IMG/VR virus record: IMGVR_UViG_3300036770_008728 | Span: 1-64,000 of that record | Direction: 5' to 3' (one strand) | DNA from: a virus | Length of the DNA: 64,000 nucleotides | Shown: positions 12,272 to 63,913 of the stretch, piece by piece | How positions within the stretch are numbered: the stretch's first letter is position 1 | Layout: the number at the start of each line of letters is the position of its first letter | Made by a program: the position numbers and the translations under genes | The notes under the pieces: generated by a model | The model's database searches: none | Seen by the model: the letters and a program-made list of their open reading frames with translations, nothing else | What the model was told of the DNA's origin: nothing

Positions 12272-12307
12272 GTCTGTTAATCCCGAGTTTTTTCTGCATG
12301 ATAGCTG

Positions 12308-12339
12308 AAAAAACAAAACCCAGCCACAAGGACTGGGTT
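12308..12339 (-). terminator. Intrinsic terminator of the sRNA
   Basis: AACCCAGTC CTTGT GGCTGGGTT then TTGTTTTTT. Confidence 0.85.
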
Positions 12340-12383
12340 AACCATTAGGATTAACAAACATTGACACGAGGCCACTGCTTGCT
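12308..12383 (-). ncRNA. Predicted ~76-nt antisense sRNA complementary to the conserved RBS motif
   Basis: Promoter, 5' hairpin with G-U pairs valid only on this strand, 22-nt AUGUUUGUUAAUCCUAAUGGUU, intrinsic terminator; intergenic. Confidence 0.75.
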
Positions 12384-12390
12384 AATCCAA

Positions 12391-12419
12391 ATATTATTGG
12401 ACAACTGCGGACAAGTCAA
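12391..12419 (-). promoter_or_regulatory. Sigma70-like promoter of the sRNA
   Basis: TTGACT (12419-12414), 17 bp, TAATAT (12396-12391). Confidence 0.7.
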
Positions 12420-12448
12420 GACAACCGCAGACAAATGTTACAAATTGT
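12399..12448. repeat. Five phased (G)ACAA direct repeats over the sRNA promoter
   Basis: ggacaactgc/ggacaagtca/agacaaccgc/agacaaatgt/tacaaattgt, 10-bp period. Confidence 0.7.
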
Positions 12449-12843
12449 TAGGTTGGCTGCTGAATCAGTTTAATCGTGATGTCTTTTACCAGCCCATTTC
12501 CGTTTTTCACTGCCTCAGGTATAACCAATGGTTCCTCAAACCTAACGATCATATTCCCGTAGCGATCACTTGGATAAATAAATTCCTGATGCAGCTCATG
12601 TGCGGCATAGAAGTTTTCCAACGCCAACAAATTGAGTTTCGGCTGAATCGTCGCGGATAGCACGTTGTTACTGTCCTTGAACCACCATAAACCATCAAAC
12701 CGAAGTTGCAGGCTCTTCATCGCTGGGGCATTTGGCTTTGTCGTGTAAGTCCAGTTACCACCCAGTTTTACCTGGGCGCCACGCTTTGGATAGGACACTG
12801 AAGTCACATGGGTTGGAAAATCGAAAGTTTGTAGGGCCATCAC
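12448..12843 (-). CDS. Minor (distal) tail protein M-like
   Basis: Directly after tape measure; LENFY..H.....F motif; size. Confidence 0.7.
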   Translation of the reverse strand: MMALQTFDFPTHVTSVSYPKRGAQVKLGGNWTYTTKPNAPAMKSLQLRFDGLWWFKDSNNVLSATIQPKLNLLALENFYAAHELHQEFIYPSDRYGNMIVRFEEPLVIPEAVKNGNGLVKDITIKLIQQPT

Positions 12844-15800
12844 ATATCTCCAGTGCTAATACGTTTGACTAATTTCTTCGTGGTAGAGTCCCGCATCAGC
12901 GCCTTGTTAACGACAACCAACATGGAATTCTCATCCATCGAATTGGCCTTCTCATCTTCCGATACCACCCAGACGTTAACTACGGCTTCACGCCCGGAGG
13001 ATTCTGAACGTTCTCCGGACGGCATCGCCTCCAGAGACTTCACCGAACCACGGTCCATATTGTTCAGCGTTCTTACGGTATCCACACCCAATGCCTGAAC
13101 AGCCGCACGACGCAACACGAATTCACCCTGGGCCGCGTGAACCAAAGTGCTATCTCGTGTTTGCATACCGCTGGTGATTAAACCACCGGAGGCATATCGT
13201 TTTGGTGCACCCACCTGACCACCGTTCCATAGAGGTTGAGCTCCAGTAGCCATCGAAAGATCCATCTTTGGCGCGAATGATGAAATCGCAAAACTTATCA
13301 GTTGCTGCATCAGGGCGTTGGCTGCAATCTGCATCGCCACATCAGTCAAACTTTGCAGAATGCTGGCAGCAAAACCACGGAAGGATTCACCCGCAGTCAT
13401 GGAGCCTGTTGCGAACTGAGTAAAGAAGTTGCCCAGGCTGCTCCCTGCACCATCCAAAACACTCTTAAGACCCAGAGCTGCTTCGGTCAGACCATCCATG
13501 CCTTCGTAAGCCTTTGACGATTGTGTCAGGGCATAGTCAAACGCATTACGGGCTTGCTGGCCCAGTCCGCCGGCTGCAGTGCCCGCAGAGGTAAACTCAC
13601 CTTCACCGGCCAGTATCTGCTTATCCGTCTGATATGAACCACCTTTAACAATGGCCTGTACCCGGCGACGATCTTGGCTGAGAAATGGTTTATCGCGGAG
13701 CTCAGCCATGGCGGCATTGCCCCGCATCGCATTAGTTTGTTGGCCTGTCTCATAGGTGTTTTTGTCGATTGAGCCCTGCAGTTCCTGAATTTTCTTATTG
13801 TTGTCCTCGATAGTGGGCGTCAGCTTGTTAATTTCCTCCTGATACCGGCGGGCTTCAGCAACGCTCATATTTGGTAATGCTGCAGTTAATTCACTGACAC
13901 GGGCCTGCTTGACTCTGTTGTCCGCCTGATAGGCCGAGATTTCCTGCTGCATCGATCTGACAGCTGTTTGGCTGGCCCGCTCAATCAGAGGGATGCTGAG
14001 CAGGTAGGCCTGTTTCTGACCCTCACTACCCAAGCCGGCGTCATCGGCACGGCCCACCAACTTATCGGCTTGGCGCTTCAGTTCATCCGCCCGGTTTTTC
14101 TCTTTTTCCGCGGCGGCAAGCTGCGCCTTCAAACGGGCAGATTCCTCAGCGTTCGTTTTGTCAAAGTACTGATCGGCGGCCCGGGCAATTTCCTTGGAGT
14201 AGGTCCTCGACACACCGGACAGACGGAAGTCACCTTTTGCAAACAATGAACCGGCTTGCAGGCGGGCCCGTTGCCGGTTTGCGTTCTCGGCGTTACTCCC
14301 CAGACGACTGTCGAGCGCATCACGGGAACTGGCCTGTATTTGTTCCAGCTGCGTCAGGTCTTCACCAGCTTCAGCCTTTGAAATCTCCAGCTGCAGAGCC
14401 GATTGTTTACGTAGCAACGCGGCAATAGCTTTCTCCAGTCGCTCGATATCCTTCAGGTTGTTCGCATCACTGAGCTCCAGTTCCCGAAGCTCCAGTTCGG
14501 CTTCAACACTTCCACCCTCAGCCCGATTCTGACGTTTGAGGGAACGTAGAGCAGATGGGGCGGCAGAGGACTGTGCACTACGTGTTTTGGCCAGGGCACC
14601 ATTAATAAACTCGGGGTAGCGTGAGTCCGTCAGTACTTTGTTGAGTAGTTCCGCCGGCAATTTAGACTTAGCCAGTTCGGTTTGAACGAAGGCTTTAATT
14701 TCTTGGTTGAGGCCCCGAGCCTCAGTCTCAGACTGGCCACGGTACTCCGTCAGGCCCCGGTACAGTCCCAGGGCGTCTTTACCGTATTGTTTTGAGATCT
14801 GCCCATTTCGTTCGGCAACAGATTCCACAAATGTATTGGCTCGTGCACCGAACTGGCGTTTTACGGCCTCCACGATTGCAACGATTTGCTGTTGTTGTGG
14901 GAGCCTGTCTGACTTCTGCAGTTGATTCAGAATGTCATCCACAATCTGAATTTGACCCTCAATATCTTTTTTGGCCAGCTCCAACTCGGCCATTACGCTT
15001 TCCGGTTTTACATAATTGGCGTTGGCTCGGGCCTTCAACAGCTCGGGTTTTGCATCCATTTCCTGCGTTAAAAGAATGAGGTCTGTCAGTCGACCTTTTA
15101 GGGTTTTTTCCAATGCCACGATATCTTCTCTCGGGCTGTTTAGATTTAAACCCTTACCGGCTGATAGCAGTTTTGTGAATGGAGAATCACCGGTATTGAA
15201 CTGGCGATTATTCGCTTTCAAACCCAAGAAATTTGCGAGTTCCGGGTTAAAGGTAGACACAACACTGGTGGTATACCGGTTCTGAGGCCCCATGATGCCC
15301 TGACCGGATTGAGACTGCCCCTGATATCCGGCCAGTAAACCGAACTGGGCCTTAGCTTCATTTCTGGCGGCATCCGACTGACGTGCCAGGTCGATCTCAG
15401 TAAAGGCAATCATCCGACCGCGTAACTCTTCCAGCTTCCCAATCAGGGTATCAAATGCCGGGTTGGTCTCTTCCATGTAGAAGCCCAGATTTTTCAGCTC
15501 TGAGTTCAGCTGACCCACGAACTGGCGCATCATTTCCGGCCCGGTCTTGGCATCTTCCAGAGCCCCGCGCTTGTAGTAGGCATCAGAGATAATGGAGTCG
15601 ACTGATTTGGTACCCGCGGAGTACCTGTCCAGTCTGGCCTGTATCTGGTTGCTTTCAAACTTCGCCATATCCAATGGCTGTTGTAATCGAGCACTGCGAT
15701 TGTTGGAACTCATGGCGTAAGCAGTCAGCGCCGCCACACCTGATAAACCCCAGATCCAGGGGCCACCCAGCACTGTTCGGACCACGGCAAGCACCGCTGA

Positions 15801-18800
15801 GGTACTGGCCGTGGAACTTAATGCCGCGGTAGTGGCGATTGCGGCGGCGGTTCCTACGCCAGAATCTGAACCGGGAATTCCAGATTTACCACCACCTAAA
15901 ACACGGCCAGCCAACTTCCCGACGCCCACGACACCTCCTACGGCAAGACGTGTCGCTCCGATAGCAAGCAGCCCGTTCAGTAAAGGCCCCGCACCTTTTA
16001 GGTTAGAAACCAGATCTGCAGTCAATCGGACTAAATCGGTCAACACTTCAATCATCGGCGCCAGGGCATCATAAAACACTGACTTACCAATAGAGGTGAA
16101 CCGTGCCCATTGGTTGGCCAAGGCGCCCATCTGGACGGCGTTGGCGCCCGCTGCGGCACCGCTTTGATTCATCGCAGTAGTAATATCCCGAGCGGTCTGG
16201 ATGTTGTTGGCAAAGGCGCCGTAAGCGTTCGCTGCACGAACTTCCATGGTTTCCATGGCATCCACTACGGTAAAGCCGCTGCTGGACAGTTTTGCCATGA
16301 CATCCGTGAGGCTGTATGTGCGAAGATCCAAATCCTCCATTGTCAGGCCAAGGTCGAAGATTTTCTTCTTGAAGCCCTCGGTAGGTTTCTGGAGTGTGAT
16401 CAGGATCTGGCGTAAACCGGTACCCAGTGTCGAACCGGATTTAACACCCGAGTTAGCCATTGCGGCCAGTGCTGCCACCGTATCTTCAAAGCTGACATTA
16501 CTCTGTTCCGCAATGTTACCGGCGTACTGCAGGCCTAAGCTGACTTTATCCAGGTTCAGTTTTGATTGGTTGATGGAAATCGTTAGTTTGTCGACTATCT
16601 CAGGCATCCGGGTTGCTTCGAAGTTGAAGACACCCATTGCCGAAGTAGCAAGGTCGACCGCGGATTTCAGGTCGGTACCCACCGCGGTTGCAAAGAGAGT
16701 GATACCGGGTAATGCTTCCAGAATTTGGTCTTTACTCAAACCTGCTTGACCCAGGATAACCGCAGTATCCACCACTTCCACGGCATCGAATTTCGTCAGC
16801 TCAGAGATTTCGATCAGGGAACCCTTCACCTTTTCCATGTCGTTGTAGGTCAGTGCAAGGATGGCCTGAAGCTGGGCAAAGTTCTTATCGAGCTCCACGA
16901 TGAAGTTACCCGTAGAGTAACCAGCCGCCACCCCGCCACCCAACACCGCATAGTTCCGAAGCAACATGGCTTGGTTGCGGAACATATCCGCGCCACCATC
17001 AACATCTCGTCGGATTTGGTTTTGGTTAATCTGACTCAGTACACGAGCACGGTTTGCCGCGTAAGAGTCGCGCTCTGCAGCTTGCTGCGCGGCTTTCTCT
17101 TGCTGGGCCTGCCGGTAGGCTGGGTCATTCTGCTTTGCCGCCGTATTGCCCAGCTGGCGCTTAATTGTCAGCTGCTGTTCCAGAGTCCTCAGCTGTTCTT
17201 TCAGGAGGTTGAGTGATTCGACCTCGGCTTTAACATTGCCGTTCGTTGCTGCCGCTTGGTCAACCCGGAGCTGCTGGGCCCGCAGACGTTCATCCGCCCC
17301 CCGTTTAAAGTTTTCCAGATCCGTTAGTGCTAAACCACTGAGCCGGCTGGCGTCCGGTAGATAGCGCCCATCATAGCGGCTGCTGGCATAAGTACCCAGA
17401 CGCTGGTTCAGCAGTTGCGCTTGGGTTTGTGTTGCTGTGGGAGCTGCAGTGGCCTTGCCGCCAGATTTTGGCTGCAGCTCGTCCAGAGCCCGAGATAACC
17501 GGTCCAACACCAAACGTAACCGCTCTGATTCGCCCTGGGTGGCTCTATCGTTTTTGTAGAGTGTATTGGCATCAACCTTCAGCTGTTCAAGAGCTGAAAT
17601 AGATTTGCCGCGTACCAAGGCATCGAGCTGGGACTGAAAGCTCTGATCCGTTTTTAAACCAGACAACCGTTTGAGTTCTTCCAGCCGGCCGGTACTGGGG
17701 TTACTAATATCAGCCAGAACCTTTCCAACCAGTTCGGCGCTCTTGGCATACTGATTACCGGTCTTTTTATCACCATCAGAAAAAGCGCTTCTGGCCTGCC
17801 GGTTTAAAGCCGATTGCTGAGCCTTCAAATAGGCAGGGTCTTCTTTCTGTAAGGTGGCCACCAGCTGTTTTCTGCCCGCGGCAGTATTAGCCTGGGTGGC
17901 AAACGCTTTCAGCTGCTGAACCGCCGGCGCCATCTGTTGCAGTGCGGTTTGTAGGGAGTTCGCCAGCTGCGCGTAGTCTTGGGCCTTTCCAGAGTTACCA
18001 AACTGTTGGGCTTCGGTACTGGCCGTTTTCCGGGCGGTTTTAATCAGGACCTTAAGGTCTTCAGTATTCGAGCCGGCAATCAATGAATTTAAGGCGGCTT
18101 TGTTTCCAACGGCCGCCGCTAACTGTTCCTGCCGCCGACGCAACCCCGGAGCAGCCTTATCAGACATGTACTTATCAATGGTTTCCAGTGCGTTGCTTGC
18201 CGCCTTCATACCCATTTTGTTGCCGAGGTCTGAGCTCTGTTTAAGCAATTGAGCTGCAGCTGCACGGGTGGCTTTTACCTCATAAGCCGGGAGGCCCCGC
18301 AAGTACTGTTCTGGATATTTGGAATCGCCCGCAATCTGACTAATCCGACTTTGCCGACCACGCTGGGCCGCTTCTTTCTGGCTATTACGGATCTCAGCTT
18401 CAATTTGCCGGCGCTGACGAATTAATTCCTGTTGGAACTTCTGGCTCATCTGGCCAAGAACTTCTTTTTGGGTGGTCAGTTGCTGGTCGAGAGATTTCTT
18501 AAAGGCTTCCAGCTGCATTTTAACTGCCGCTTTTTGAGCCGGGTCTTGAAGATTGTTGTAAATGGCATCCGCTGAACTCTTGCCGGCCCGACGAGCCGTG
18601 GCCTGGTCACGAAGCAACTCCGCCAGTTTGGTGTTCAGACTTTTCAGCTCGGCCTCGGTGGTTTCCCGGGCGGTTCCAGATTTAGCCCCTTTACCCAGGT
18701 TGGCGAGTTTAGTACTGAGTTTTTCAACATCCCGGATAGTGGCGAGGATTGATTGGTCGAGCTGCTTGATCTGTTCCGCCGCAGCTTTTAGAGTCCCGCC

Positions 18801-18839
18801 GTCCTGAACACCAAGATCGAGAATTACGTCTTTGGTCAT
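12840..18839 (-). CDS. Tail tape measure protein
   Basis: 1999 aa, Ala/Gln/Leu-rich helical, TP901-type core (LGQAGL, LANSGVKSGSTLGTGLR), C-terminal YASGG..GEFVL. Confidence 0.95.
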   Translation of the reverse strand: MTKDVILDLGVQDGGTLKAAAEQIKQLDQSILATIRDVEKLSTKLANLGKGAKSGTARETTEAELKSLNTKLAELLRDQATARRAGKSSADAIYNNLQDPAQKAAVKMQLEAFKKSLDQQLTTQKEVLGQMSQKFQQELIRQRRQIEAEIRNSQKEAAQRGRQSRISQIAGDSKYPEQYLRGLPAYEVKATRAAAAQLLKQSSDLGNKMGMKAASNALETIDKYMSDKAAPGLRRRQEQLAAAVGNKAALNSLIAGSNTEDLKVLIKTARKTASTEAQQFGNSGKAQDYAQLANSLQTALQQMAPAVQQLKAFATQANTAAGRKQLVATLQKEDPAYLKAQQSALNRQARSAFSDGDKKTGNQYAKSAELVGKVLADISNPSTGRLEELKRLSGLKTDQSFQSQLDALVRGKSISALEQLKVDANTLYKNDRATQGESERLRLVLDRLSRALDELQPKSGGKATAAPTATQTQAQLLNQRLGTYASSRYDGRYLPDASRLSGLALTDLENFKRGADERLRAQQLRVDQAAATNGNVKAEVESLNLLKEQLRTLEQQLTIKRQLGNTAAKQNDPAYRQAQQEKAAQQAAERDSYAANRARVLSQINQNQIRRDVDGGADMFRNQAMLLRNYAVLGGGVAAGYSTGNFIVELDKNFAQLQAILALTYNDMEKVKGSLIEISELTKFDAVEVVDTAVILGQAGLSKDQILEALPGITLFATAVGTDLKSAVDLATSAMGVFNFEATRMPEIVDKLTISINQSKLNLDKVSLGLQYAGNIAEQSNVSFEDTVAALAAMANSGVKSGSTLGTGLRQILITLQKPTEGFKKKIFDLGLTMEDLDLRTYSLTDVMAKLSSSGFTVVDAMETMEVRAANAYGAFANNIQTARDITTAMNQSGAAAGANAVQMGALANQWARFTSIGKSVFYDALAPMIEVLTDLVRLTADLVSNLKGAGPLLNGLLAIGATRLAVGGVVGVGKLAGRVLGGGKSGIPGSDSGVGTAAAIATTAALSSTASTSAVLAVVRTVLGGPWIWGLSGVAALTAYAMSSNNRSARLQQPLDMAKFESNQIQARLDRYSAGTKSVDSIISDAYYKRGALEDAKTGPEMMRQFVGQLNSELKNLGFYMEETNPAFDTLIGKLEELRGRMIAFTEIDLARQSDAARNEAKAQFGLLAGYQGQSQSGQGIMGPQNRYTTSVVSTFNPELANFLGLKANNRQFNTGDSPFTKLLSAGKGLNLNSPREDIVALEKTLKGRLTDLILLTQEMDAKPELLKARANANYVKPESVMAELELAKKDIEGQIQIVDDILNQLQKSDRLPQQQQIVAIVEAVKRQFGARANTFVESVAERNGQISKQYGKDALGLYRGLTEYRGQSETEARGLNQEIKAFVQTELAKSKLPAELLNKVLTDSRYPEFINGALAKTRSAQSSAAPSALRSLKRQNRAEGGSVEAELELRELELSDANNLKDIERLEKAIAALLRKQSALQLEISKAEAGEDLTQLEQIQASSRDALDSRLGSNAENANRQRARLQAGSLFAKGDFRLSGVSRTYSKEIARAADQYFDKTNAEESARLKAQLAAAEKEKNRADELKRQADKLVGRADDAGLGSEGQKQAYLLSIPLIERASQTAVRSMQQEISAYQADNRVKQARVSELTAALPNMSVAEARRYQEEINKLTPTIEDNNKKIQELQGSIDKNTYETGQQTNAMRGNAAMAELRDKPFLSQDRRRVQAIVKGGSYQTDKQILAGEGEFTSAGTAAGGLGQQARNAFDYALTQSSKAYEGMDGLTEAALGLKSVLDGAGSSLGNFFTQFATGSMTAGESFRGFAASILQSLTDVAMQIAANALMQQLISFAISSFAPKMDLSMATGAQPLWNGGQVGAPKRYASGGLITSGMQTRDSTLVHAAQGEFVLRRAAVQALGVDTVRTLNNMDRGSVKSLEAMPSGERSESSGREAVVNVWVVSEDEKANSMDENSMLVVVNKALMRDSTTKKLVKRISTGDM

Positions 18840-18857
18840 GTTTGTTAATCCTTATTT

Positions 18858-19235
18858 TTATCCGAAGACGGAAGCAAACGCCGCATCCATTTGAGCCGCT
18901 GTTTGAGGCTCAAAGGCCCTCTTAGGCGTTGGAGTACCGTTACCCTTGCCGCCCCCCAGCGCTTGATTTATCACTTTGACCAGTGCTTCAAACTGCTGGT
19001 GGTGCCCAATCATAAACTCGCCGGATTTAATTCGAAGTTTGTAGCGCAAATCGGCATAAGTGAAAGTCCAGTAGATCCGCAGAACCTGACTTGGGACCAC
19101 ATCAAAGGACCAACAAATTTGCTCTTCAAAGTTCAGTTTTTCATACCACTCACGAAAAACGGTTAACCCTTCAGAATCTCCGCGTTTGTCCGCGTCTGAA
19201 GCTCCTGCTGACACTTCAGACGTTTGATAAAAAAA
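18858..19235 (-). CDS. Tail assembly chaperone, frameshifted (GT) extension
   Basis: -1 frame ORF entered at slippery T TTT TTT, ends just before tape measure. Confidence 0.75.
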   Translation of the reverse strand, partial: FFYQTSEVSAGASDADKRGDSEGLTVFREWYEKLNFEEQICWSFDVVPSQVLRIYWTFTYADLRYKLRIKSGEFMIGHHQQFEALVKVINQALGGGKGNGTPTPKRAFEPQTAAQMDAAFASVFG

Positions 19236-19528
19236 TCCTGCAGATGTGCCACCACCCAAGCCAATAAGAGTTCACCCTGCTCAATGGTTAGCTGGAAATC
19301 TTCAGAGTCCGGATTATAAGCCTTGGTGATTTTGCCCTCACCATCCCGAATACTTAGAGCAAGTGCAAAGACAGCATCCCTTAGGGAGGCTTCACTCTGT
19401 AACAGGGGGAGGTCTTGAATACTACCGCCGATTGCGGAGATTTGATTGAGCAGGCCAAAACTCATAAAGAGCTTTTTATCGGTGCCATTTGCAAATTGAA
19501 TAGTGAGATGTGCCGACGGAGCTGTCAT
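19163..19528 (-). CDS. Tail assembly chaperone G
   Basis: Start ATG 19528 by conserved RBS motif; between tail tube and tape measure. Confidence 0.8.
   Translation of the reverse strand: MTAPSAHLTIQFANGTDKKLFMSFGLLNQISAIGGSIQDLPLLQSEASLRDAVFALALSIRDGEGKITKAYNPDSEDFQLTIEQGELLLAWVVAHLQDFFIKRLKCQQELQTRTNAEILKG
19229..19235 (-). other. -1 programmed ribosomal frameshift site
   Basis: GA[T TTT TTT] ATC in G frame; -1 frame open to 18858. Confidence 0.8.
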
Positions 19529-19579
19529 GTCTGTTAATCCTATAGTTGTCGTCATAATAGTAAACCACAGGACCAGAAC

Positions 19580-19606
19580 AAAAAAGCCCCGAGCAATCGG
19601 GGCTTT
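19580..19606 (-). terminator. Intrinsic terminator after tail tube gene
   Basis: AAAGCCCCGA TTGC TCGGGGCTTT TTT. Confidence 0.9.
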
Positions 19607-19622
19607 AATCACCAGGGAGCGG

Positions 19623-20423
19623 TTAGACCAATGCTGACTTAACCGTATCTTTCGCCAAGCTGGCCACCCGGTTAGTGAAGTCAGAATAGTACTTGTCAGT
19701 ACTCACCAACTGCATTGGGCGCCACTCTAAAGGCATATTGCCATAGTTGTCGGTCTGGAACGCCATGTTCAGACCTGACGTGATCCGAATACGTGGGAAC
19801 AACAGCGCAATCCAGGTACCATCAGCCAGCTGACCCGTAACCTTGGCCGCGTATTCCGTGGCTTCGTTTGTTGAACCCATAGCCAGGACGTCACAACGCG
19901 AAATCACAGTACCAATCGGGAACTGACGAGTACCCGTATCACATTCAACAATTAAGTTCGGCGTGATAGCGGTCACTTTACCGATGTTAATGTTTTGGCT
20001 GTTTGGCTCACGCAGCATCACGGTATTGCCGATGGCATAGGCTTGAGGTGACGCCGGACTATCCGTTGTAAACGTGTGTAACTTGGCGTTCAGCGTACTC
20101 AGGGCCGTCGAGGTTTTTGGTGTACCCGGCACATCCACAAAACCCGAACCGTCCAAGCTCAGTGCATAAGCCAAGTTCTTAGACGTGTATTCGTAGAGTT
20201 CACAGGAAGCACGAGCAGTACTGCCCGCATTACGGATATGCACCAGCGTATTAGAAATACCCTGACCAAGTTCTACCTGATCACGAGTTACTTCACACAC
20301 GAAGTTTTTGACCAGACCCACGGAGTTTAAGTCTGGAGTGAATTCGTACAGCTTGTCCCGAGGTCCAATCATAACCTCAGCAGTGCCTAACATAAAATTG
20401 GTCGTGCGAGCTTCACCGGCCAT
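19623..20423 (-). CDS. Major tail tube protein
   Basis: Position before chaperones, own terminator, beta-rich, ends MPLEWRP. Confidence 0.8.
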   Translation of the reverse strand: MAGEARTTNFMLGTAEVMIGPRDKLYEFTPDLNSVGLVKNFVCEVTRDQVELGQGISNTLVHIRNAGSTARASCELYEYTSKNLAYALSLDGSGFVDVPGTPKTSTALSTLNAKLHTFTTDSPASPQAYAIGNTVMLREPNSQNINIGKVTAITPNLIVECDTGTRQFPIGTVISRCDVLAMGSTNEATEYAAKVTGQLADGTWIALLFPRIRITSGLNMAFQTDNYGNMPLEWRPMQLVSTDKYYSDFTNRVASLAKDTVKSALV

Positions 20424-20477
20424 GTTTGTTAATCCTTCAATTGTGATAAAATCAGCTATAAACGGAACAATATAATC

Positions 20478-20819
20478 ATGCTAAAAAATATAGCCGTTAG
20501 CGTCCCGAGTGAGGTGTATGAAATACTGAATTCAATGACAGTATCATCACCCCGGTCATTACTCAGTATAAAGTTACTGAGAGCCTTTTTCAAAGAGAAC
20601 CCACCGCTTCGGGATATGTCAGGCCTTTTGGACCAAGACACGCATTCCTTCACTCTGCGCATTCCCCAGGATCTCATCGAACAACTGGAGCGGTTTGCTA
20701 ACCGTATGGCCTACAACCGCCATACGGCTCTGCTGGTCGCTCTGGTCGCTCAGATTGCTGCAGAGCAGCCTTACTTCAGAGAACCGACATCAATGCCGGC
20801 CGGTAACGTAAAGTGGTAA
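20478..20819 (+). CDS. Tandem ribbon-helix-helix DNA-binding protein
   Basis: IAVSVPSEVYEIL and SFTLRIPQDLIEQLERFA...NR, two Arc/CopG-like units. Confidence 0.65.
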   Translation: MLKNIAVSVPSEVYEILNSMTVSSPRSLLSIKLLRAFFKENPPLRDMSGLLDQDTHSFTLRIPQDLIEQLERFANRMAYNRHTALLVALVAQIAAEQPYFREPTSMPAGNVKW

Positions 20820-21283
20820 GCCATAGTAGGTGTTACTGCCCAAGGCTGGCCACAATACTCAGCTTCGCTTAACATAAATTCAATGCAGGATAGTTTATCC
20901 AACTGATTGAATTTCTCTGCGAGACCTAACGCAAAACCCAAAAGATGCGACGTATCATATTCTGTCGCTGCCTTAGCTTTCGCACGATAACCCTCCAGAG
21001 CTTTTTGCTTATCACGCACGGCCAATAACCGGATTTCGACCCGACCGTTGTAACGCTTTAAAAACTCAGCAATCGGAGTTTCAACTACCCGATTGTGGGT
21101 TTCTTTTAAATGTTTCTGACCCAGTACCTTGAGCTTGAAAAGAGCACTAAATGAACCCTTGGATTCAATGGCTACTTCGCGCTCACGGTCATACACAGCG
21201 CCATGGCTGAACTTACCCGTGAGCCGGATTAACCAGCTTACGGGATGATTCCCAATGGCGAACAACGTTTCTACATACTGCAC
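20771..21283 (-). CDS. Permuted papain-like (YaeF/YiiX) amidase
   Basis: SWLIR..GKFSH.A, YD, C.E in His-before-Cys order. Confidence 0.75.
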   Translation of the reverse strand: MQYVETLFAIGNHPVSWLIRLTGKFSHGAVYDREREVAIESKGSFSALFKLKVLGQKHLKETHNRVVETPIAEFLKRYNGRVEIRLLAVRDKQKALEGYRAKAKAATEYDTSHLLGFALGLAEKFNQLDKLSCIEFMLSEAEYCGQPWAVTPTMAYHFTLPAGIDVGSLK

Positions 21284-21292
21284 AGGGACCTC

Positions 21293-24406: not shown

Positions 24407-24424
24407 AGAAGCTCCAGAAGTACT

Positions 24425-24444
24425 GGGAGGTCCGAAGACCTCCC
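24425..24444 (-). terminator. cUUCGg hairpin after capsid gene (no U-tract)
   Basis: GGGAGGTC TTCG GACCTCCC. Confidence 0.65.
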
Positions 24445-24459
24445 TTATTAGTTCAAGGC

Positions 24460-25677: not shown

Positions 25678-25738
25678 GCTTGTTAATCCTATTCTAATTT
25701 TAGTGGAGGCGGGCTAGGCCCGCACGACCAACGAGCTG

Positions 25739-26137: not shown

Positions 26138-26143
26138 GGGTCC

Positions 26144-27292: not shown

Positions 27293-27345
27293 GTTTGTTA
27301 ATCCTCAAATTGTCTATTTATGCTAGAGCATTTTATTTCGAACTT

Positions 27346-31488: not shown

Positions 31489-31621
31489 GCTTGTTAATCC
31501 TCTGATTGTATTGCCTGATTTTGTGCGGCAATTTCAGTATATCACCGGATAATTTGAATGTGGAACGGCAATATTCCGGTATGATTCACTGGAAAGTAAC
31601 ACATCGACAGGATTAACAAGC

Positions 31622-33140: not shown

Positions 33141-33263
33141 GCAAGGGCAGACCAGCTGCAAACGAGGCCCACCGGCTTCGACGCTCTAGTACTGCCCTTA
33201 GCCAGGACACGGTTGGAAACTTCCAACCGAACCGAACCAAGCCAAACAATGGGATTAATAAAC

Positions 33264-39975: not shown

Positions 39976-40193
39976 GTTATTTGTACTATTTAGCCATTAG
40001 GATTTAAAACAAAATTAAGAGCGCCAAAGGGCGAACTTTTAGTGTCAGAGGGATTTGCACGGATCGCCACTGACCATTAGGATTAACAAACATCTGTTTG
40101 TCATGGGGCTGTACATCGGCCCCTATAACTTGCTCTGTAAACCGGAGCCATTTGCTTCTAAAACGAAGTAACGAACCATTAGGATTAACAATT

Positions 40194-41353: not shown

Positions 41354-41373
41354 CAATCAGGGGATTAACAAAC

Positions 41374-41923: not shown

Positions 41924-41967
41924 TCCTGTACATCGGGACTGTCACTAACCATTAGGATTAACAAATT

Positions 41968-43530: not shown

Positions 43531-43588
43531 ACCGGCCCCCGCCAAAGGGGTGGGGCCTTTAGTACCCTAACCATTAGGATTAACGAAT

Positions 43589-44392: not shown

Positions 44393-44447
44393 TTTTCCCC
44401 CGCCAAAGGGTGGGCTCTTTACTACCAACCATTAGGATTAACAAATC

Positions 44448-46927: not shown

Positions 46928-46979
46928 CCACGGTCCTGCCAAAGGGTGGGACTTTCACAACCATTAGGATTAACAAACT

Positions 46980-47450: not shown

Positions 47451-47474
47451 TCAAACAATTCGGGATTAACAAAC

Positions 47475-49920: not shown

Positions 49921-49948
49921 CCCGCAACAACCAGAAGGATTAACAAAC

Positions 49949-51067: not shown

Positions 51068-51098
51068 TTCAATTCAACAATCAGAAGGATTAACAGAC

Positions 51099-51514: not shown

Positions 51515-51568
51515 AACAAAAAACGCCGGCGGCAACCGTCGCCGGCACAACAATTAGGATTAACGAAC

Positions 51569-52591: not shown

Positions 52592-52647
52592 TTTAAGAAC
52601 CCGCCGGCGGCAAAGGTCGCCGGCATCAACCATTAGGATTAACGATC

Positions 52648-53747: not shown

Positions 53748-53797
53748 ATTCCCTGTCGGGGCAAAGGCCCCGACTCTCTAACCATTAGGATTAACAA

Positions 53798-55087
53798 ATG
53801 ACCAATGCACTGCAGAACCTGCCGCCTTTTCCCGAGCCGGTACCCAACCAATACTTCATCGACGGCCGCACCGTAGACCTCTCTGAAGACCAAATTTTAG
53901 TCCGGGATACCATTTTGTCTGGCCGGAACGTTTTCCTGACGGGGGAGCCCGGTACCGGCAAATCGGTGCTGACCAAAGTATTAAAATATGAATTTGCTAA
54001 ACGCCGGAAGTCACTGGTGGTTCTGGCTCCTACAGGAATTGCCGCTTTGAACGTCGGTGGTTCCACCATCCACAAGTTCTTCAAATTCAAAATTGACCCG
54101 CTGGAACCCTACTACGGCGACTCGGTGGGGCGCTCTTTCCGGATGCGTGAACTTATCCGGGCAACAGATGTTCTGCTGATTGACGAAATTTCAATGGTCC
54201 GCAGTGACGTGTTTGTTGCGATGGATAAGGCAATGCGGGGCGCGATGCTGGAACCGAATAAACCGTTTGGTGGTCGGCAAGTGATCTTGGTTGGTGACTT
54301 TTTCCAGCTTCCACCCGTAGTTTCAGACCCGAACCTGTACCCGTGGCTCGACCAATTCTTTGGTGGCCGTGCCGCCTACAACACAGCCAGCTGGGTCGAA
54401 GGTAATTTTGAGTGCCTGGGCCTGACTGAGATGCACCGTCAAACGGGAGACCCGATGTTTGTGAACGCCCTGCGGCATATCCGCAACCGGGACACTCAAG
54501 GTTTTGGGATGGTGAATCAGATGTGTCGGGTGACTCGGGATTTAGAGGGGACCATTATCGTGTTCACTCGGGATGCCGCTCGGGTTATTAACGGCCGGCG
54601 CCTGAACGAACTGGATGCCACACCATTCACCTTCGTTGCAGAGATTGAAAAAGGTGCGGTGGCGCCGGTTGATGCTGAAATCACATTGAAAGTCGGTGCC
54701 CGCGTCATTCTGATGGCCAACACTGATGCTTTTGTGAATGGGGACATGGGTGAGGTTATCGAACTCCGTACAGATACCATTGTGGTGAAACTCGACCGAG
54801 GCCACCGGATTGAAGTATGCCGGCATGTCTGGGAGCAAAAAGAGTACGTGGTGGCTTCCGATGGCCAGATCACGGAAAAGGGTGGCGCTAAATTCTCCCA
54901 GTTTCCTCTGGCACTCGGCTGGGCCATCACAGCGCACAAATCACAAGGCCAGACCCTCGACAAGGTGACGCTGCTGCTCGATACCCGCCCTTTCGAACCT
55001 GGCCAGCTGTATGTGGCCCTGAGCCGCGTTCGCCGTGCAGAAGACCTGCTGCTTGGCCGTCCGTTAGATAACTTTGACATGGTGTGA
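53798..55087 (+). CDS. Pif1/RecD-like SF1B helicase
   Basis: GEPGTGKS, APTGIAA, DEISMV, GDFFQLPPV, AITAHKSQGQTL, YVALSR. Confidence 0.95.
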   Translation: MTNALQNLPPFPEPVPNQYFIDGRTVDLSEDQILVRDTILSGRNVFLTGEPGTGKSVLTKVLKYEFAKRRKSLVVLAPTGIAALNVGGSTIHKFFKFKIDPLEPYYGDSVGRSFRMRELIRATDVLLIDEISMVRSDVFVAMDKAMRGAMLEPNKPFGGRQVILVGDFFQLPPVVSDPNLYPWLDQFFGGRAAYNTASWVEGNFECLGLTEMHRQTGDPMFVNALRHIRNRDTQGFGMVNQMCRVTRDLEGTIIVFTRDAARVINGRRLNELDATPFTFVAEIEKGAVAPVDAEITLKVGARVILMANTDAFVNGDMGEVIELRTDTIVVKLDRGHRIEVCRHVWEQKEYVVASDGQITEKGGAKFSQFPLALGWAITAHKSQGQTLDKVTLLLDTRPFEPGQLYVALSRVRRAEDLLLGRPLDNFDMV

Positions 55088-56405: not shown

Positions 56406-56496
56406 AAAGTTTGGGGGGCTTTTCGTACCCCCAAACTTCGTTAAAATACGCCAAGGACGACAAAGGTCGGCCGTTAAATGATTAGGATTAACAAAC

Positions 56497-59612: not shown

Positions 59613-59642
59613 TAAAAACAATCAAAATTAGGATTAACAACC

Positions 59643-59939
59643 ATGGCTAAATCTGCCTTGAATTTCAAAATTTTTAACCTGTTCACCAGTGCGATTGGGA
59701 TGAATGAAGCTCAAACCAACCCACACAACGACCGGTTGAACGAGCTGTCCATTATGTCCAATTCAATGCTGACCCATTACCTGGTGGCTCCCGCTGCCGA
59801 GCGGCAACAAGTACTGACTCAGCTTCAAGAAACGTTGAATTTGGCGCTGGACCAGCTTCAAACCGGCCTGGCTCTCATCGAAGAAGAGCAAGCCCTCCTG
59901 CAGGCGGAGATTACCCCCTTGTCGAATACAGAAAGCTGA
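59643..59939 (+). CDS. Hypothetical coiled-coil protein
   Basis: Conserved RBS motif. Confidence 0.75.
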   Translation: MAKSALNFKIFNLFTSAIGMNEAQTNPHNDRLNELSIMSNSMLTHYLVAPAAERQQVLTQLQETLNLALDQLQTGLALIEEEQALLQAEITPLSNTES

Positions 59940-60114
59940 TTACACTTGTCCTCAGCTAATACCTCGTAACATTGGTCAACCCCCGGTACTGGGGGTTTCT
60001 TTGAGGTTTAGCTTGAGACTGAGCGTATCGGCCTTGGACCTTCCAAGGTTCAATTCCGATGCTCTTAGCATCTCCACAATCTGGGATTAACAATCATAAT
60101 CGAGGTAAAAAATC

Positions 60115-61068
60115 ATGACTATGAACATTGACGCCATGATCGCAAACGCTAATCAATCTGCTAATCAACAAACTCAACAAGCGGTCACTATCGACCAGAC
60201 CGTTGTCCACACTCAAACTGTAAATCAAGCTCAGAATACCCAGGTAGACGTCGTTGACGACGAAGAAGCTGAACTGATGCGTCAGTTAGAAGCCAAACGT
60301 GCGGCGAAAGCGGCCGCGGCAGCGCAAGCAGCCAGCCCTCAAGCCGGCCAAGCTGTGAGTCAGGTTCAACCACAGTATCTGCCTGCAGGTGCCCAGCAAA
60401 CTGTCGCTGTTCAGCAAAATGCTCAGGTCCCTGTTGCAGGTGCCACCGGTGCGGCGGCTCTGCCAGCGCACTTAGCGGCGTCGTTAATGCAGCCGATGAG
60501 CATGGATATGGAAACCTTCATGTCCATGGGGATGTCGGTGGACCTGTGGCTGAAGCCAAGTTATGCCGGCCTGACTGTGGGTGACAATGCCACACCAGTA
60601 CCTCACATGGATGTCGTTATTGATATGACTGAAAAAGTGGGTTTCCAGCTGGCCATGGCTATTCGTTATGGCAGTGAGCCAAATGTGAAGTACGACTACA
60701 CCCATGACTGCGTGACAAACAAAGATGGCCGCCCTTGGGCGGATGCTTTGGCTTTAGCATATCAACTGGATCCTAAAGTCAGCCCATACCGCTGCGTTCA
60801 GCTGCCGATGGTCGTGGCAGACGAAACTAAAAACTTCCAGAACCAGGTTGTTGCCCTGCCGGGTCAAACCGTGGGTTACACCACCGCTGTTACCGGTTGG
60901 AGTGCATGGCAGAACTTCTACATGCAAGTTCAACGGGCAGGACTACTGGGCCATAAGGTGAAAGTTCGCCTGACCAACGAAGCGAAAATGAAAGACACCA
61001 ACAAATGGGGTCTGATTAAGTTTGAGCTTCTGGGTGTTGCTGACGCGACACAGCAAAAAACAGCGTAA
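60115..61068 (+). CDS. Putative single-stranded DNA-binding protein
   Basis: Gln/Ala-rich N-terminus, aromatic/beta C-domain, between helicase and exonuclease; call from gene order. Confidence 0.5.
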   Translation: MTMNIDAMIANANQSANQQTQQAVTIDQTVVHTQTVNQAQNTQVDVVDDEEAELMRQLEAKRAAKAAAAAQAASPQAGQAVSQVQPQYLPAGAQQTVAVQQNAQVPVAGATGAAALPAHLAASLMQPMSMDMETFMSMGMSVDLWLKPSYAGLTVGDNATPVPHMDVVIDMTEKVGFQLAMAIRYGSEPNVKYDYTHDCVTNKDGRPWADALALAYQLDPKVSPYRCVQLPMVVADETKNFQNQVVALPGQTVGYTTAVTGWSAWQNFYMQVQRAGLLGHKVKVRLTNEAKMKDTNKWGLIKFELLGVADATQQKTA

Positions 61069-61136
61069 TCGCTACCGGAGGCCGGCAAACGCCGGCCTCC
61101 ACAAACAATTCGGATTAACAAACAAGCAGGTGACCT

Positions 61137-61934
61137 ATGCTCCGCATAATCGACGGTAACAACCGTTTCCGTGCTCACTTCGAAAAACAAGGCCCACAGG
61201 CCCTCAGTAATCTCTACAACCACAGCGTGACGTTCAACTCAGGTGACAAAGTGATCTGGGTGTGGGATGCCCCGGGTGGTTCCGGTGCCAGAAAGTCTAT
61301 TTATCCGGCCTACAAAGGCGCAACGGATAATATCCCGACAGACCATTTCTTTGAGACCATGAAGTTCTTCAAAGAAATCCTGCGGCATTCAAACTGCCTG
61401 CAGATTGAAGTACCTGAGTTTGAAGCGGATGACGTCATTGCCGCTCTTGCCTTGGGGAGTTCGCAAGAAATACTTATCGACAGTAGTGATGCTGATTTCC
61501 TCGTTCTGGTGAATGACCGGATCCAGAGCACACGAGACCCCATCAAAGGTGTTGATGCTCGGCATGTCCGGCTTTACAAAACGCTGGTGGGTGATACCTC
61601 GGATAATATTCCGGGCCTTAAAGGTTTTGGGGAGAAGGGCTTTATTACTCTTCCCGACAGCACGAAAGACCTTTTGGTCAGCCACTTCGCAGGAACTCAA
61701 AACCTGACTGGTGCAGACACCATGCAACTCTGTGGCTTCAAAAAGGCCCAGGCAGCGAACTGGGATTTGATGCAGGCCGACCTTCAAACCTTCTGGCGGA
61801 TCGTGGGGTTCTTCGACTTACCGCCTGAACTTCTTCAAAAACATATCACTGCCGGTGTTCACAACCCGCTTGAAGCTCAGAAGCTGTTGGCTTCTCAGCT
61901 GATGACGATGGCACCGACAATGGGAGCTGTCTAA
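61137..61934 (+). CDS. 5'-3' exonuclease (PolI N-terminal / FEN-like)
   Basis: IIDGNN, WD, R..IYP.YK, EADDVI, D.D, LVGDTSDNIPG.KG.G. Confidence 0.95.
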   Translation: MLRIIDGNNRFRAHFEKQGPQALSNLYNHSVTFNSGDKVIWVWDAPGGSGARKSIYPAYKGATDNIPTDHFFETMKFFKEILRHSNCLQIEVPEFEADDVIAALALGSSQEILIDSSDADFLVLVNDRIQSTRDPIKGVDARHVRLYKTLVGDTSDNIPGLKGFGEKGFITLPDSTKDLLVSHFAGTQNLTGADTMQLCGFKKAQAANWDLMQADLQTFWRIVGFFDLPPELLQKHITAGVHNPLEAQKLLASQLMTMAPTMGAV

Positions 61935-62941
61935 TGCAGAACATCCATGTAGAACTGATTCAGGCCAGCGTAGGCCCGAACGGTATTCCAATCCACACCT
62001 TTCGAATGACTTACCCGCGGTTTATTCATGCTGAATGTAAGACACACCGGTTACTGAAAATTGACGATGAAAATTGGATTGTCGAGCAGGAACTGGCGCT
62101 GATGGACGATGTGAACCTGAGCCGTAACGCTGCCAGTAGTCGTGCTATCCCAGTTGAAAAAATGCTGGAACAAATCACCAACCAACCGGCGATGCCCGTG
62201 CACTGGGGTAAAAATCAGTCCGGTATGCAGGCTCGGGAAGAGTTAAGTCCAGAAGAAGCGTCAGCAGCTGAAGTGTGGTGGCGCCAGGGTGCCCAGCTGA
62301 TGGTGGACCACGTTCGTAACTGTCCCGTCCCTCTGCACAAGCAGGTTATCAACCGGCCGCTGGAAACGTGGATGCTAATGACCGTTGTCGTCACCGCAAC
62401 CGACTGGAACAACTGGCGGGCGTTAAGAGCGCACCCTGATGCACAGCCGGAGATTTATGAGCTGGCCAAGCAAGTGGTTGAGCTGCTGGACAACACCGAG
62501 CCATTTCAGTTGAGAGCTGGTGATCTGCATGTGCCGTTTGTTGAGAGGCAGCGTGAACCTGAGGGGTACCTTCATTATTTCATTGTTGAAAACGATGGCA
62601 CCCGTGTCTACCTGAACTCAGACCAAGTACTTCAAGTCTCAGCCAGTTGCTCGGCTCAAACCAGTTTCCGTGCTTTGGACTTCTCGTTGGACAAGGCCCA
62701 GCGGATCTACAAAAAACTGGTGGAAGACCGTCCGGTCCACGCCTCTCCATTTGAACATCAGGCCATAGCTTTGTTTAGTGACGAAGATATCAAAGTCCGG
62801 ACTATCAATGGTATCTGTGGGGGGCTCGAATTCCCTGAAGGCATCACCCATATCGACAGAAACCTTGAACTGTGGTCAGGCAATCTGCGTGGCTGGGTAC
62901 AACATCGTCAACTCATCAATGGCCACCATGTGCCAGGTTAA
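61934..62941 (+). CDS. thyX: FAD-dependent thymidylate synthase
   Basis: PRFIHAE..THR ... SRNAASSRA, HPDAQPEI..LA, HASPFEH. Confidence 0.85.
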   Translation: MQNIHVELIQASVGPNGIPIHTFRMTYPRFIHAECKTHRLLKIDDENWIVEQELALMDDVNLSRNAASSRAIPVEKMLEQITNQPAMPVHWGKNQSGMQAREELSPEEASAAEVWWRQGAQLMVDHVRNCPVPLHKQVINRPLETWMLMTVVVTATDWNNWRALRAHPDAQPEIYELAKQVVELLDNTEPFQLRAGDLHVPFVERQREPEGYLHYFIVENDGTRVYLNSDQVLQVSASCSAQTSFRALDFSLDKAQRIYKKLVEDRPVHASPFEHQAIALFSDEDIKVRTINGICGGLEFPEGITHIDRNLELWSGNLRGWVQHRQLINGHHVPG

Positions 62942-62950
62942 GGACCTCCT

Positions 62951-63865
62951 ATGTTTTTTGAAAATCTGAAGATTTACCGTGTGACTGAAAAGCTCCCGTT
63001 TGTTAAAGACGAAGACGCGCTTCAAGCCCAGTTGGAAGAGCATCAGTTCACTCCCTGCATGGCACATGACATGTTGAAGATGGGCTTTGTATCTCCGTTG
63101 GTTCCTGGCGGTAAGCAGCTGTTCCGAAACGTCGGCGGTAACTACTACTTTGCCCTGAAGCGTCAGTGGAAGGTGTTGAAGTCCACCATGATCAACGAGC
63201 AGCTGCAGCCGCAGATCACCCAGAAAGAACAGGAACGGGGCCGGCCGCTGGGACGTAAAGAAAAGTCGGGTCTGAAAGATGAAACCATCCAAAGTCTGTT
63301 GCCACGGGCGTTGACCGAATCATCTACTATCGTTGGGATGTATGTCCCGGCGAAAGACCTGCTGATTTTCAATACCAGCAGTCATGGCCGTGCTGAAGAC
63401 TTTATGGCTTTGTTACGTAAAGCTCTGGGCAGTTTACCCGCGGTACCATGGTTTGATGCGAACAAACTGTCCTTTGCAATGAATTCCTGGTTGGGCCAAC
63501 AACACCTGCCACAGGATTTTGTGCTGGGTCACACCGTAGAGCTGAAAGCGCCCGATGAAGACGGTGCAGTGGCACAGTTCAAATCTCACCTGTTGACCGG
63601 CGCCGACGTTCAAAGCCATTTAGAAGACAAAATGGTGACGAAGCTGGAGCTCTATAAGCCTGAGCATTTAAGTTTCACGATTGTTGAAGATGGCCGGATC
63701 TGCAAACTCCGCTGGCGAGAGCTCCTTATTAACCAGAACGATGAGCTGGGCTGGGAAGATTTGGAGGCCCGACTTGAAGCAGACAGTCTGCTGATGTTGG
63801 ATACCATTACAACTTTGTTGGACAAACTGACGGGCTCAATGCAAGCCGTTGACGACGCAGCGTGA
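62951..63865 (+). CDS. rdgC: Recombination-associated protein RdgC
   Basis: MFF.NL.IYR, F.PC....GFV.P, LLPRA, LLRKALGSLP, V.KL.L. Confidence 0.95.
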   Translation: MFFENLKIYRVTEKLPFVKDEDALQAQLEEHQFTPCMAHDMLKMGFVSPLVPGGKQLFRNVGGNYYFALKRQWKVLKSTMINEQLQPQITQKEQERGRPLGRKEKSGLKDETIQSLLPRALTESSTIVGMYVPAKDLLIFNTSSHGRAEDFMALLRKALGSLPAVPWFDANKLSFAMNSWLGQQHLPQDFVLGHTVELKAPDEDGAVAQFKSHLLTGADVQSHLEDKMVTKLELYKPEHLSFTIVEDGRICKLRWRELLINQNDELGWEDLEARLEADSLLMLDTITTLLDKLTGSMQAVDDAA

Positions 63866-63870
63866 CAATC

Positions 63871-63893
63871 AGGGTGGCTTCGGCCACCCCTTT
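63871..63893 (+). terminator. cUUCGg terminator hairpin
   Basis: GGGTGGC TTCG GCCACCC CTTT. Confidence 0.75.
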
Positions 63894-63913
63894 AAAATTT
63901 GGGATTAGCAAAC

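Follow-up and report, generated by a model that had tools for sequence, protein, structure and literature searches.

The stretch of DNA analysed here comprises bases 1-64000 (hereafter the window) of an 84,406-bp phage genome from a subsurface metagenome (IMG/VR record IMGVR_UViG_3300036770_008728). Judging from its genes, the phage appears to be temperate and lambda-tailed, and many of these genes are preceded by a private translation-start tag of the form AACCATTA-GGATTAAC-AAAC-ATG. We lean, with some hesitation, towards the explanation that this tag is read by one antisense RNA of ~80 nt encoded between the tail genes M and L. The motif is probably read as RNA by a complementary RNA, and not as a DNA operator, on the basis of the co-variation of tag and RNA among relatives, a conserved fold and the anatomy of the one reversed copy of the motif. 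An earlier note on this DNA had preferred RNA-RNA pairing to a DNA operator because most variants of the motif seemed to preserve G-U pairing with a small RNA; its conclusion is supported mostly by the evidence just named, and to a minor degree by its argument from the substitutions.

A tag at the translation starts

The whole genome was scanned on both strands with the 16-mer TAGGATTAACAAACAT, allowing up to three mismatches of any kind and using 20 shuffles as the null, which is the unbiased scan that the earlier note had called for. The results showed 36 matches versus ~0.4 in the shuffles, with zero, one, two and three mismatches in 3, 10, 14 and 9 of them; eight matches with four mismatches were left out because they were at noise level (5.2 expected). 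The hexamer GGATTA occurred 58 times versus 22.5 ± 5.1 expected, and 0 of 100 shuffles reached 58. All matches but one lay on the strand of their own gene block (35/36), and the remaining match, at 12338-12363 on the plus strand, was the sole reversed copy. A start codon followed in exact register at 22 of the 35 tags and with an offset of 1-3 nt at eight; five had no adjacent start. The tag is asymmetric and contains the Shine-Dalgarno (SD) sequence, and GGATTA was unchanged in 35/35 sites. Ascertainment bias had been feared, as the copies were first collected by eye through this GGATTA core; the scan would admit changes there and found none, so the fear was not borne out.

It is highly improbable that the motif is the DNA operator of a transcription regulator. 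A sequence of 16-22 bp repeated across the genome could be taken for one, but the motif is not palindromic, contains an SD sequence, keeps to the strand of the gene block at all 35 sites and stands in register with a start at 22 of them and within 1-3 nt of register at eight. Its copies also lie within operons before single genes and not at promoters.

Since at least three of the five tags without an adjacent start precede a start farther downstream, the tag would have a function beyond that of an SD sequence, and the two seem separable. The tags at 60076-60115 and 61104-61137 of the window and at 75310 of the genome stand 9-30 nt ahead of a start codon, and a sequence resembling a second, ordinary SD lies between these tags and their starts. 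G+C-rich hairpins, often with a CAAAGG-type loop and with no U tract, were seen 8-12 nt upstream of early-type tags (43540-43570, 44400-44430, 46930-46960, 51520-51550, 52600-52630, 53750-53780, 56450-56480 and 61075-61105), a layout like that of the inverted repeats of extended start-associated sequence (ESAS) sites. Ribosomal RNA (rRNA) was rejected as the cause of conservation over 16-22 nt, as only AGGA and a flanking A fit the 3' end of 16S rRNA. The exact tag as an 18-mer, CCATTAGGATTAACAAAC, gave 22 loci in viral contigs (L001-L022), each a single match in an unrelated coding sequence. The matches recur in a conserved coding sequence and are coincidental, and the contigs are not relatives of the phage.

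A predicted small-RNA unit in the M-L gap

Genes M (12448-12843) and L (11780-12271) are separated by a 178-nt gap, in which the reversed copy lies on the strand of the two genes. The predicted unit around it has the following features:

12391..12419, minus strand: sigma-70-type promoter (TTGACT, 17 nt, TAATAT), predicted from sequence
12306..12386, minus strand: ~80-nt RNA from fold prediction, with a 5' hairpin, an unpaired AAUCCUAAUGGUU linker and a terminator; putative start
12338..12363, minus strand: mirror (anti-tag), the 26-nt exact reverse complement of TTAACCATTAGGATTAACAAACATTG, the only reversed copy genome-wide
12375..12384, minus strand: 5' arm, a tag mimic UAGCAAGCA that in the fold pairs with the UGUUUGUUA part of the mirror via G-U pairs
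12307..12339, minus strand: predicted intrinsic terminator, a 9-pair stem followed by UUUUGUUUUUU

Through fold prediction, we obtained a minimum free energy (MFE) of -26 kcal/mol for this RNA (z -4.0), and 0 of 200 shuffles folded equally well. Its 5' hairpin joins the arm, itself a degenerate tag, to one half of the mirror with three G-U pairs; because of these G-U pairs, the fold is specific to the minus strand. The mirror is a perfect 26-nt match to the early-type consensus, and a predicted terminator hairpin with a U tail stands at the 3' end of the RNA, as in a handle for FinO. No Rfam family reached its gathering score in the window; at 12200-12500, with E values up to 10, eight weak matches were obtained, none of them to c4, the best with 22.3 bits against a threshold of 81. 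The opposite strand of the unit held no conserved open reading frame (ORF) in this phage, in its relatives L023 and L025 or in phage KB12-38.

Co-variation of tag and mirror among relatives

Relatives were found via homologues of protein L (an alignment of 11 homologues), which led to L023 among genome contigs and to L024 and L025 among metagenome contigs; none was in viral contigs. With protein L as a single query, no relatives were found in viral or genome contigs, and a megablast search of 8 kb against the phage collection gave no close relative. L024 is 92.7% identical over 14.5 kb and L023 80.5% over 12.5 kb; the protein L of L025 is 55% identical. By terminase and tail protein L, the closest named relative is Pseudoalteromonas phage KB12-38 (54% and 48% identity), followed by Achromobacter JWF-like, Xylophilus, Acinetobacter and Caulobacter phages. 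Further homologues of protein L (P0005 and P0009) lie on a 103-kb Alishewanella contig and a 70-kb contig.

The comparison showed three lineages with three tags, GGATTAAC, GGACTAAC and GGATTGAC, each with an exact mirror in the same tail-gene gap. Tag and mirror read GGATTAACAAAC and GUUUGUUAAUCC in the phage of the window, GGACTAACAAC and GUUGUUAGUCC in L025, and GGATTGACAAT and AUUGUCAAUCC in KB12-38. The genes of L025 carry GGACTAACAAC(T)ATG (8 copies in 20 kb), and its gap holds TTGACA-16-TAATAT, GUUGUUAGUCC and a terminator of different stem. Those of KB12-38 carry GGATTGAC(AAT)ATG, with GGATT 9-20 nt before the start of 31 of the 83 annotated genes; in its gap stand TTGACT-17-TACTAT, a stretch exactly complementary to AACTATTTGGATTGACAATATG and a terminator with yet another stem of the same form. 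Seed and target thus co-vary between lineages in three tag/mirror pairs, as in small RNAs that act in trans. A likeness of TTAACAA to the core of rrn and lambdoid boxA was considered and dropped, as TTGACAA and CTAACAA in the relatives track the mirror and the tag stands at start codons.

The same architecture was predicted for 5/5 RNAs: a 5' hairpin, an open linker of 11-14 nt with the anti-SD, and a terminator. In L023 and L024 the promoter hexamers are unchanged and the spacer is altered. The 5' arm of L023, UAACGAGCA, carries G>A and A>G relative to that of this phage with its pairing complete, and an inner stem pair C-G is replaced by U-A between the two. These compensatory changes were read by eye from single folds, and the MAFFT alignment misaligns the 5' hairpins of L025 and KB12-38. 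In the more distant phages JWF, Lumi and EAb13 (L030, L031 and L032), M and L overlap or stand 44 nt apart, with no such gap, and 0 of 14 starts were tagged in ~2.8 kb around gene L of each, which carries little weight for whole genomes. Tag and RNA unit may have a joint origin within a single sub-clade. The syntenic co-variation of tag and mirror is the strongest evidence for RNA-RNA pairing.

Substitution spectrum of the tag copies

Each of the 35 sites was compared with the 26-nt perfect complement of the RNA. The variants that had been listed by eye were all present: AACAGAC at starts 12271 (minus), 19528 (minus) and 51099 (plus), AACAAGC at 25677 (minus), 31488 (minus) and 31622 (plus), AACGA at 43589, 51569 and 52648, TTAGCAAAC at 63914, TTAATAAAC at 33264, and GGGATT for AGGATT at seven sites within the window. 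Each is indeed an A>G change facing a U, or a C>T change facing a G, in the minus-strand RNA 12363..12338. The tags concerned are:

12272..12291, minus strand: gene L tag GGGATTAACAGAC, one A>G preceding GG and one within the spacer; may pair with the mirror in cis
19529..19548, minus strand: tag with AACAGAC (A>G), start 19528
51079..51098, plus strand: tag with AACAGAC (A>G), upstream AATCAGA with 3 mismatches, start 51099
25678..25697, minus strand: tag with AACAAGC (A>G at -2), start 25677
31489..31508, minus strand: tag with AACAAGC (A>G at -2), start 31488
31602..31621, plus strand: tag with AACAAGC (A>G at -2), start 31622
43569..43588, plus strand: early-type tag with AACGAAT (A>G, C>T), start 43589
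51549..51568, plus strand: tag with AACGAAC (A>G), upstream C>A not wobble-compatible, start 51569
52628..52647, plus strand: early-type tag with AACGATC (A>G; non-wobble A>T at -2), start 52648
63894..63913, plus strand: tag GGGATTAGCAAAC with two A>G, start 63914
33244..33263, plus strand: tag GGGATTAATAAAC with A>G and C>T, start 33264

In the TTAACAA zone, 9/9 changes were wobble-compatible (A>G 8, C>T 1), 8/8 of those inside the window among them. At the A before GG, 8/10 were compatible (8 A>G, 1 A>C, 1 A>T), and in the last two bases before the start, 10/16. As the null we took the share of transitions among all differences to relatives, which was 0.52 for L023 (1241/2406), 0.56 for L024 (589/1052) and 0.49 for L025 (418/857). 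DNA reads over 12000-31999 gave hand-summed shares of 0.55, 0.56 and 0.57 in the three runs with relatives; three of the four read runs aligned there contain relatives ~5% diverged. Against 0.56, the TTAACAA zone (~7-9 nt, delimited after inspection of the data) gave p = 0.0054, and the zone together with the last two bases gave p = 0.032 (19/25). In KB12-38, the three bases after GGATT showed seven C>T and one each of A>G, C>A, G>C and G>A, so that eight of 11 changes were compatible (p = 0.21). Pooled over this phage, KB12-38, one A>G of L025 and one AACACAC of L023, the zone had 18/22 compatible changes (p = 0.011 vs 0.56).

Several counts weigh against pairing as the cause of this spectrum. 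In the upstream AACCATT, opposite the unpaired part of the RNA, 16/103 changes were compatible; in the 20 early-type sites it had 4/27, mostly C>A and T>A/G, and in KB12-38 the upstream zone had 16/138. Over all non-SD positions complementary to the RNA, 35/128 changes (27%) were compatible, which is no excess and is the outcome that the earlier note had named as refuting its claim. Within the zone itself, G>A and G>C occur in KB12-38, and one orthologous tag of L023 carries the non-wobble AACACAC. The statement that most variants keep G-U pairing was therefore correct between the SD core and position -3 and failed upstream and over all non-SD positions. Likewise, non-wobble changes had been placed in the last few bases before ATG; 6/16 changes in the last two bases are of this kind, but their main cluster lies upstream of the SD. 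As for the proposed contrast of A>G and C>T with T>C and G>A, the local excess was found, and the core, in which every T and G position is constant, contains no T>C or G>A change. Wobble tolerance is therefore inseparable there from a transition bias of the A/C-rich consensus. A G-U pair with a U of the 16S anti-SD is retained by GGGATT as well, so that this variant is non-discriminating.

A possible explanation, though we doubt it, is that the small RNA may be real and the spectrum unrelated to it, arising from transition bias of an A/C-rich consensus under ribosome constraints (SD, spacer length and an unstructured A-rich spacer). With transition shares of 0.49-0.57 the local excess is of p 0.005-0.03 in a zone picked post hoc, the invariance of T and G leaves the reciprocal control empty, A>G before GG retains the pairing with the 16S anti-SD, and neither the overall count nor KB12-38 by itself shows an excess. 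On the other hand, 9/9 here and 18/22 in the pool exceed the prediction of 0.56, and the two T positions of GGATTA have 0 changes against nine transitions at five A/C neighbours ((5/7)^9 ~0.05, by hand). The zones also differ sharply in spectrum (Fisher p 7.6e-6), so that a uniform mutation bias is insufficient. The substitution spectrum by itself is weak evidence for pairing, and the restriction to A>G and C>T between SD and -3 gives the pairing model minor support. The wobble list drawn up by eye was persuasive, the unbiased count shows a local and weak effect, and the co-variation between lineages is the test that counts most.

The same spectrum bears on whether the tag is an RNA operator of a phage or host protein (T4 RegA-type) or a strong private ribosome-loading sequence, with the reversed copy incidental. 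The GGATTAAC core is invariant far beyond the needs of an SD, the upstream variation ignores pairing, and 'RNA or protein' was left open for a similar motif in the excerpted text of Pope et al. (PMC3203893). This explanation leaves unexplained, however, a syntenic reversed copy with promoter, fold and terminator that tracks the tag in three lineages, and we consider it very unlikely.

Action in trans or in cis

We calculated the net predicted binding of the RNA to each of the 35 sites with the folds of both partners paid, and found values of -7.3 to -23.7 kcal/mol. For 200 random windows the values were -3.2 ± 2.0 kcal/mol with a minimum of -10.9, and 31/35 sites lay beyond this minimum. The gene L tag has two A>G changes, and 4/7 of its upstream bases are mismatched to the mirror. 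The mirror thus fits the consensus better than the tag of gene L, and a promoter and terminator of its own would be needless for a fold-back; both points favour action in trans, and a cis effect on L would also be possible.

That the mirror acts solely in cis seems unlikely. The M-L messenger would then fold on the tag of gene L and set a low yield of the tail-assembly protein, the other matches following from the shared tag. In the predicted fold of the 130-nt M-L leader, 15 bp indeed join the mirror to GGGAUUAACAGACAU of gene L (MFE -43.8 kcal/mol, z -4.5), and the unit lies on the tail-gene strand ~60 nt upstream of L in all lineages. The leader to the L start is conserved as strongly as the mirror: the ~95 nt between them differ from L023 by a single 1-nt deletion, in an alignment of 80.5% identity overall, a conservation that also counts for the antisense RNA. 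But the mirror complements the consensus or early-type tag in each lineage and not that of L, which here gives two G-U pairs and is mismatched upstream, and which in KB12-38 needs a 2-nt bulge. A fold-back requires neither a promoter with conserved hexamers nor a terminator between mirror and L, the mimic in the 5' arm competes for these mirror bases, and the distant JWF, Lumi and EAb13 make L without such a gap.

Further points tell against an antisense RNA acting on the whole set of tags. Transcription of the unit is itself deduced, with promoter, start and terminator all predicted, and the late tail operon contains the RNA in sense, so that it could act in cis alone. One RNA facing ~35 well-expressed starts is stoichiometrically demanding, the open linker of the RNA is unmatched by most tags, and the co-variation comes from three independent lineages only.

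Proposed mechanism

The antisense RNA that we favour would be made from a small-RNA gene with its own sigma-70-type promoter and intrinsic terminator, as an RNA of ~80 nt with the tag mirror in its middle. As long as it is free, this RNA would keep the spacer- and AUG-facing half of its mirror paired with the G-U-rich tag mimic in the 5' hairpin and leave the other half, which faces AACCAUUAGGAUU, single-stranded. The open stretch would dock on tags with a full upstream half, i.e., ~11 early-type sites, the best of which is the ORF-less copy in the early leader. The duplex would then grow into the spacer and start codon and displace the weaker 5' arm, so that ribosome entry would be blocked and the mRNA possibly exposed to RNase III. 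The ProQ/FinO-family protein of the phage would probably assist. What the sequences show is the anatomy of tag and unit, the predicted folds, the co-variation across lineages and the conservation; transcription of the RNA, its action in trans, repression, the chaperone role and the timing (prophage immunity or early shut-off) are what we infer for this model.

The gene for that protein lies outside the window, at 74346-74867 of the genome (L029:10346-10867). Its product matches PF04352 (E 4.1e-11, 43.3 bits against a cut-off of 27) and is 44% identical to a KB12-38 protein annotated 'PFAM-ProQ', so that a FinO/ProQ-domain protein is present on the same element as the unit. By analogy with its family it is a candidate chaperone of the small RNA.

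A wider model, put forward here as a tentative proposal, would be one of phage-wide control by ~35 tags, a master antisense RNA and a FinO/ProQ chaperone of the phage's own. The RNA would work as a toehold switch whose open linker docks on full-length tags, after which the duplex would displace the weak G-U mimic; expressed in the prophage from its sigma-70 promoter, it would silence leaky or superinfecting genomes with the same tag and so confer an RNA-based immunity. Tag and RNA would drift via G-U intermediates to new specificity groups (GGATTAAC, GGACTAAC and GGATTGAC), and the same logic might hold for the start-associated sequences (SAS) of Cluster K phages.

Other tag copies and genome setting

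The other tag copies are listed below:

40174..40193, plus strand: early-type tag of the first early gene, AACAATT (non-wobble A>T; C>T)
59623..59642, plus strand: tag with AACAACC (non-wobble A>C at -2)
60076..60095, plus strand: tag without in-register start (ATA), A>G and A>T, ORF start 60115
61104..61123, plus strand: tag with TTCGG (non-wobble A>C before GG), no in-register start, ORF start 61137
40072..40091, plus strand: ORF-less tag in the early leader, with the best net binding to the RNA predicted for any site (-23.7 kcal/mol)
39992..40014, plus strand: degenerate ORF-less tag AGCCATTAGGATTTAAAAC at the head of the early leader
41947..41966, plus strand: early-type tag, start offset 1 nt
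44427..44446, plus strand: early-type tag, start offset 1 nt
46959..46978, plus strand: early-type tag, 20 nt perfect, start offset 1 nt
53780..53799, plus strand: early-type tag, spacer shorter by 2 nt
1705..1724, minus strand: early-type tag downstream of the tail-fibre region, spacer shorter by 2 nt
49929..49948, plus strand: tag with upstream AACCAGA (T>G and T>A, both non-wobble)
56477..56496, plus strand: tag with upstream AATGATT (C>T, C>G)
41354..41373, plus strand: late-type tag GGGGATTAACAAAC
47455..47474, plus strand: late-type tag GGGATTAACAAAC
10191..10210, minus strand: late-type tag GGGATTAACAAAC, start offset 1 nt
27293..27312, minus strand: late-type tag, perfect core, upstream CAATTTG
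20424..20443, minus strand: late-type tag, perfect core, with AACAAGC in the L023 orthologue
18840..18859, minus strand: late-type tag of the tape-measure gene, perfect core

The early leader at 39990-40195 holds the ORF-less tags, hairpins between them and then the tag of the first early gene, and the early leader of KB12-38 (L028:1470-1570) has the same layout. In both, a short sequence directly 3' of an ORF-less copy is complementary to the spacer of that copy and pairs with it (ACAAACA..UGUUUGU here and ACAGUAG..CUACUGU in KB12-38).

The phage is probably temperate, as its gene content includes a tyrosine integrase (1-1194) and an HTH_3 regulator (39401-39799, minus strand) that faces the plus-strand early operon. 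M and L belong to a minus-strand, lambda-like tail block, which also contains the tape-measure gene (12840-18839) and in which Pfam matches to Phage_tail_L and PhageMin_Tail were found. Among the tagged early genes are those of a DndB-family protein (51569-52591, E 6.8e-54) and an ATP-dependent DNA ligase (49949-51067), and the corresponding region of KB12-38 contains genes for DndB and a PAPS reductase; their sequences suggest a DNA-modification module in this region.

Comparison with known systems

The nearest parallel is found in the SAS and ESAS motifs of Cluster K mycobacteriophages (Pope et al. 2011, PMC3203893). The excerpted text of that paper describes private, asymmetric motifs of at least 13 nt with an SD core, standing before many starts in one orientation; its authors noted a single reversed copy and left the function open, and Figs. 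S3 and S4 give reversed SAS copies of Adephagia, Angelica and CrimD. The tag described here likewise has an SD core and stands in one orientation a few nt before many starts. A single reversed copy away from gene starts was found in both systems, 1/36 here and 1/17 in Mycobacterium phage Anaya (JF704106), which has 16 forward SAS and one reversed copy at 59870-59882 (L033:39870-39882). That copy lies in a 385-nt non-coding gap between gp96 and gp97, after a terminator; in the gene-strand RNA, CCUCCUAUCC would be in a predicted 10-nt hairpin loop closed by six G-C pairs, with a fold not beyond shuffles (z -0.34). The motif sequences differ (GGGATAGGAGCCC here versus AGGATTAACAAAC), and host phylum and phage lineage are unrelated. 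According to the same excerpts, SAS have inverted repeats before about half of the copies, and hairpins likewise stand before the early-type tags here. Late structural genes are tagged here, unlike with SAS. The reversed copy of this phage lies in a predicted promoter-to-terminator unit that co-varies with the tag, whereas that of Anaya simply lies in its gap.

The c4 antisense RNA of P1 and P7 is a phage small RNA that acts in trans on sites around the ribosome-binding site, and a few bases set its specificity and give rise to heteroimmune pairs, as summarised from Citron & Schuster 1990 in the excerpted review PMC12197685. The tag copies in the early leader recall the leader sites of that system. 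As far as the excerpt goes, c4 differs in that it serves one operon (icd/ant), is processed from the same transcript and has no genome-wide tag. The Rfam model of c4 gave no match for this unit. Whereas c4 is encoded in the immunity operon, upstream of its target and transcribed with it, the unit has its place in the M-L gap, at a distance of 27 kb from the repressor and early leader.

Global post-transcriptional action on many early translation-start regions of phage mRNAs is known from RegA and RegB of T4, which are proteins (a repressor and a nuclease) and not antisense RNA. RocR of Legionella, a small RNA, has a handful of targets. In FinP/FinO of F-like plasmids and RocR/RocC of Legionella, a small RNA that ends in a terminator occludes ribosome-binding sites together with a FinO-domain chaperone, according to the excerpted text of PMC9977716. 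FinP is described there as cis-encoded against one mRNA; here ~35 starts share the tag, and the predicted targets are elsewhere in the genome and not on the opposite strand of a single gene. The same source reports that phage-encoded FinO/ProQ proteins exist and that members of the family bind RNAs at terminators. Its excerpts mention these phage proteins without characterising them; if the RNA described here reads the tags as proposed, it would be a first candidate RNA partner for them.

A master antisense RNA against a phage-wide start tag was not described in the literature searched, the excerpted 2025 review of phage small RNAs (PMC12197685) included, and for KB12-38 the search returned genome comparisons and no other study. 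If the explanation that we favour is true, phages would possess a compact and evolvable gating of whole gene sets at the level of the ribosome, through which immunity or timing could be set in addition to the control by repressors and sigma factors. The role of start-associated motifs, a question standing since 2011 for Cluster K, would then have a concrete and testable answer: by analogy, the same logic may account for the SAS motifs of these phages, which also keep one reversed copy.

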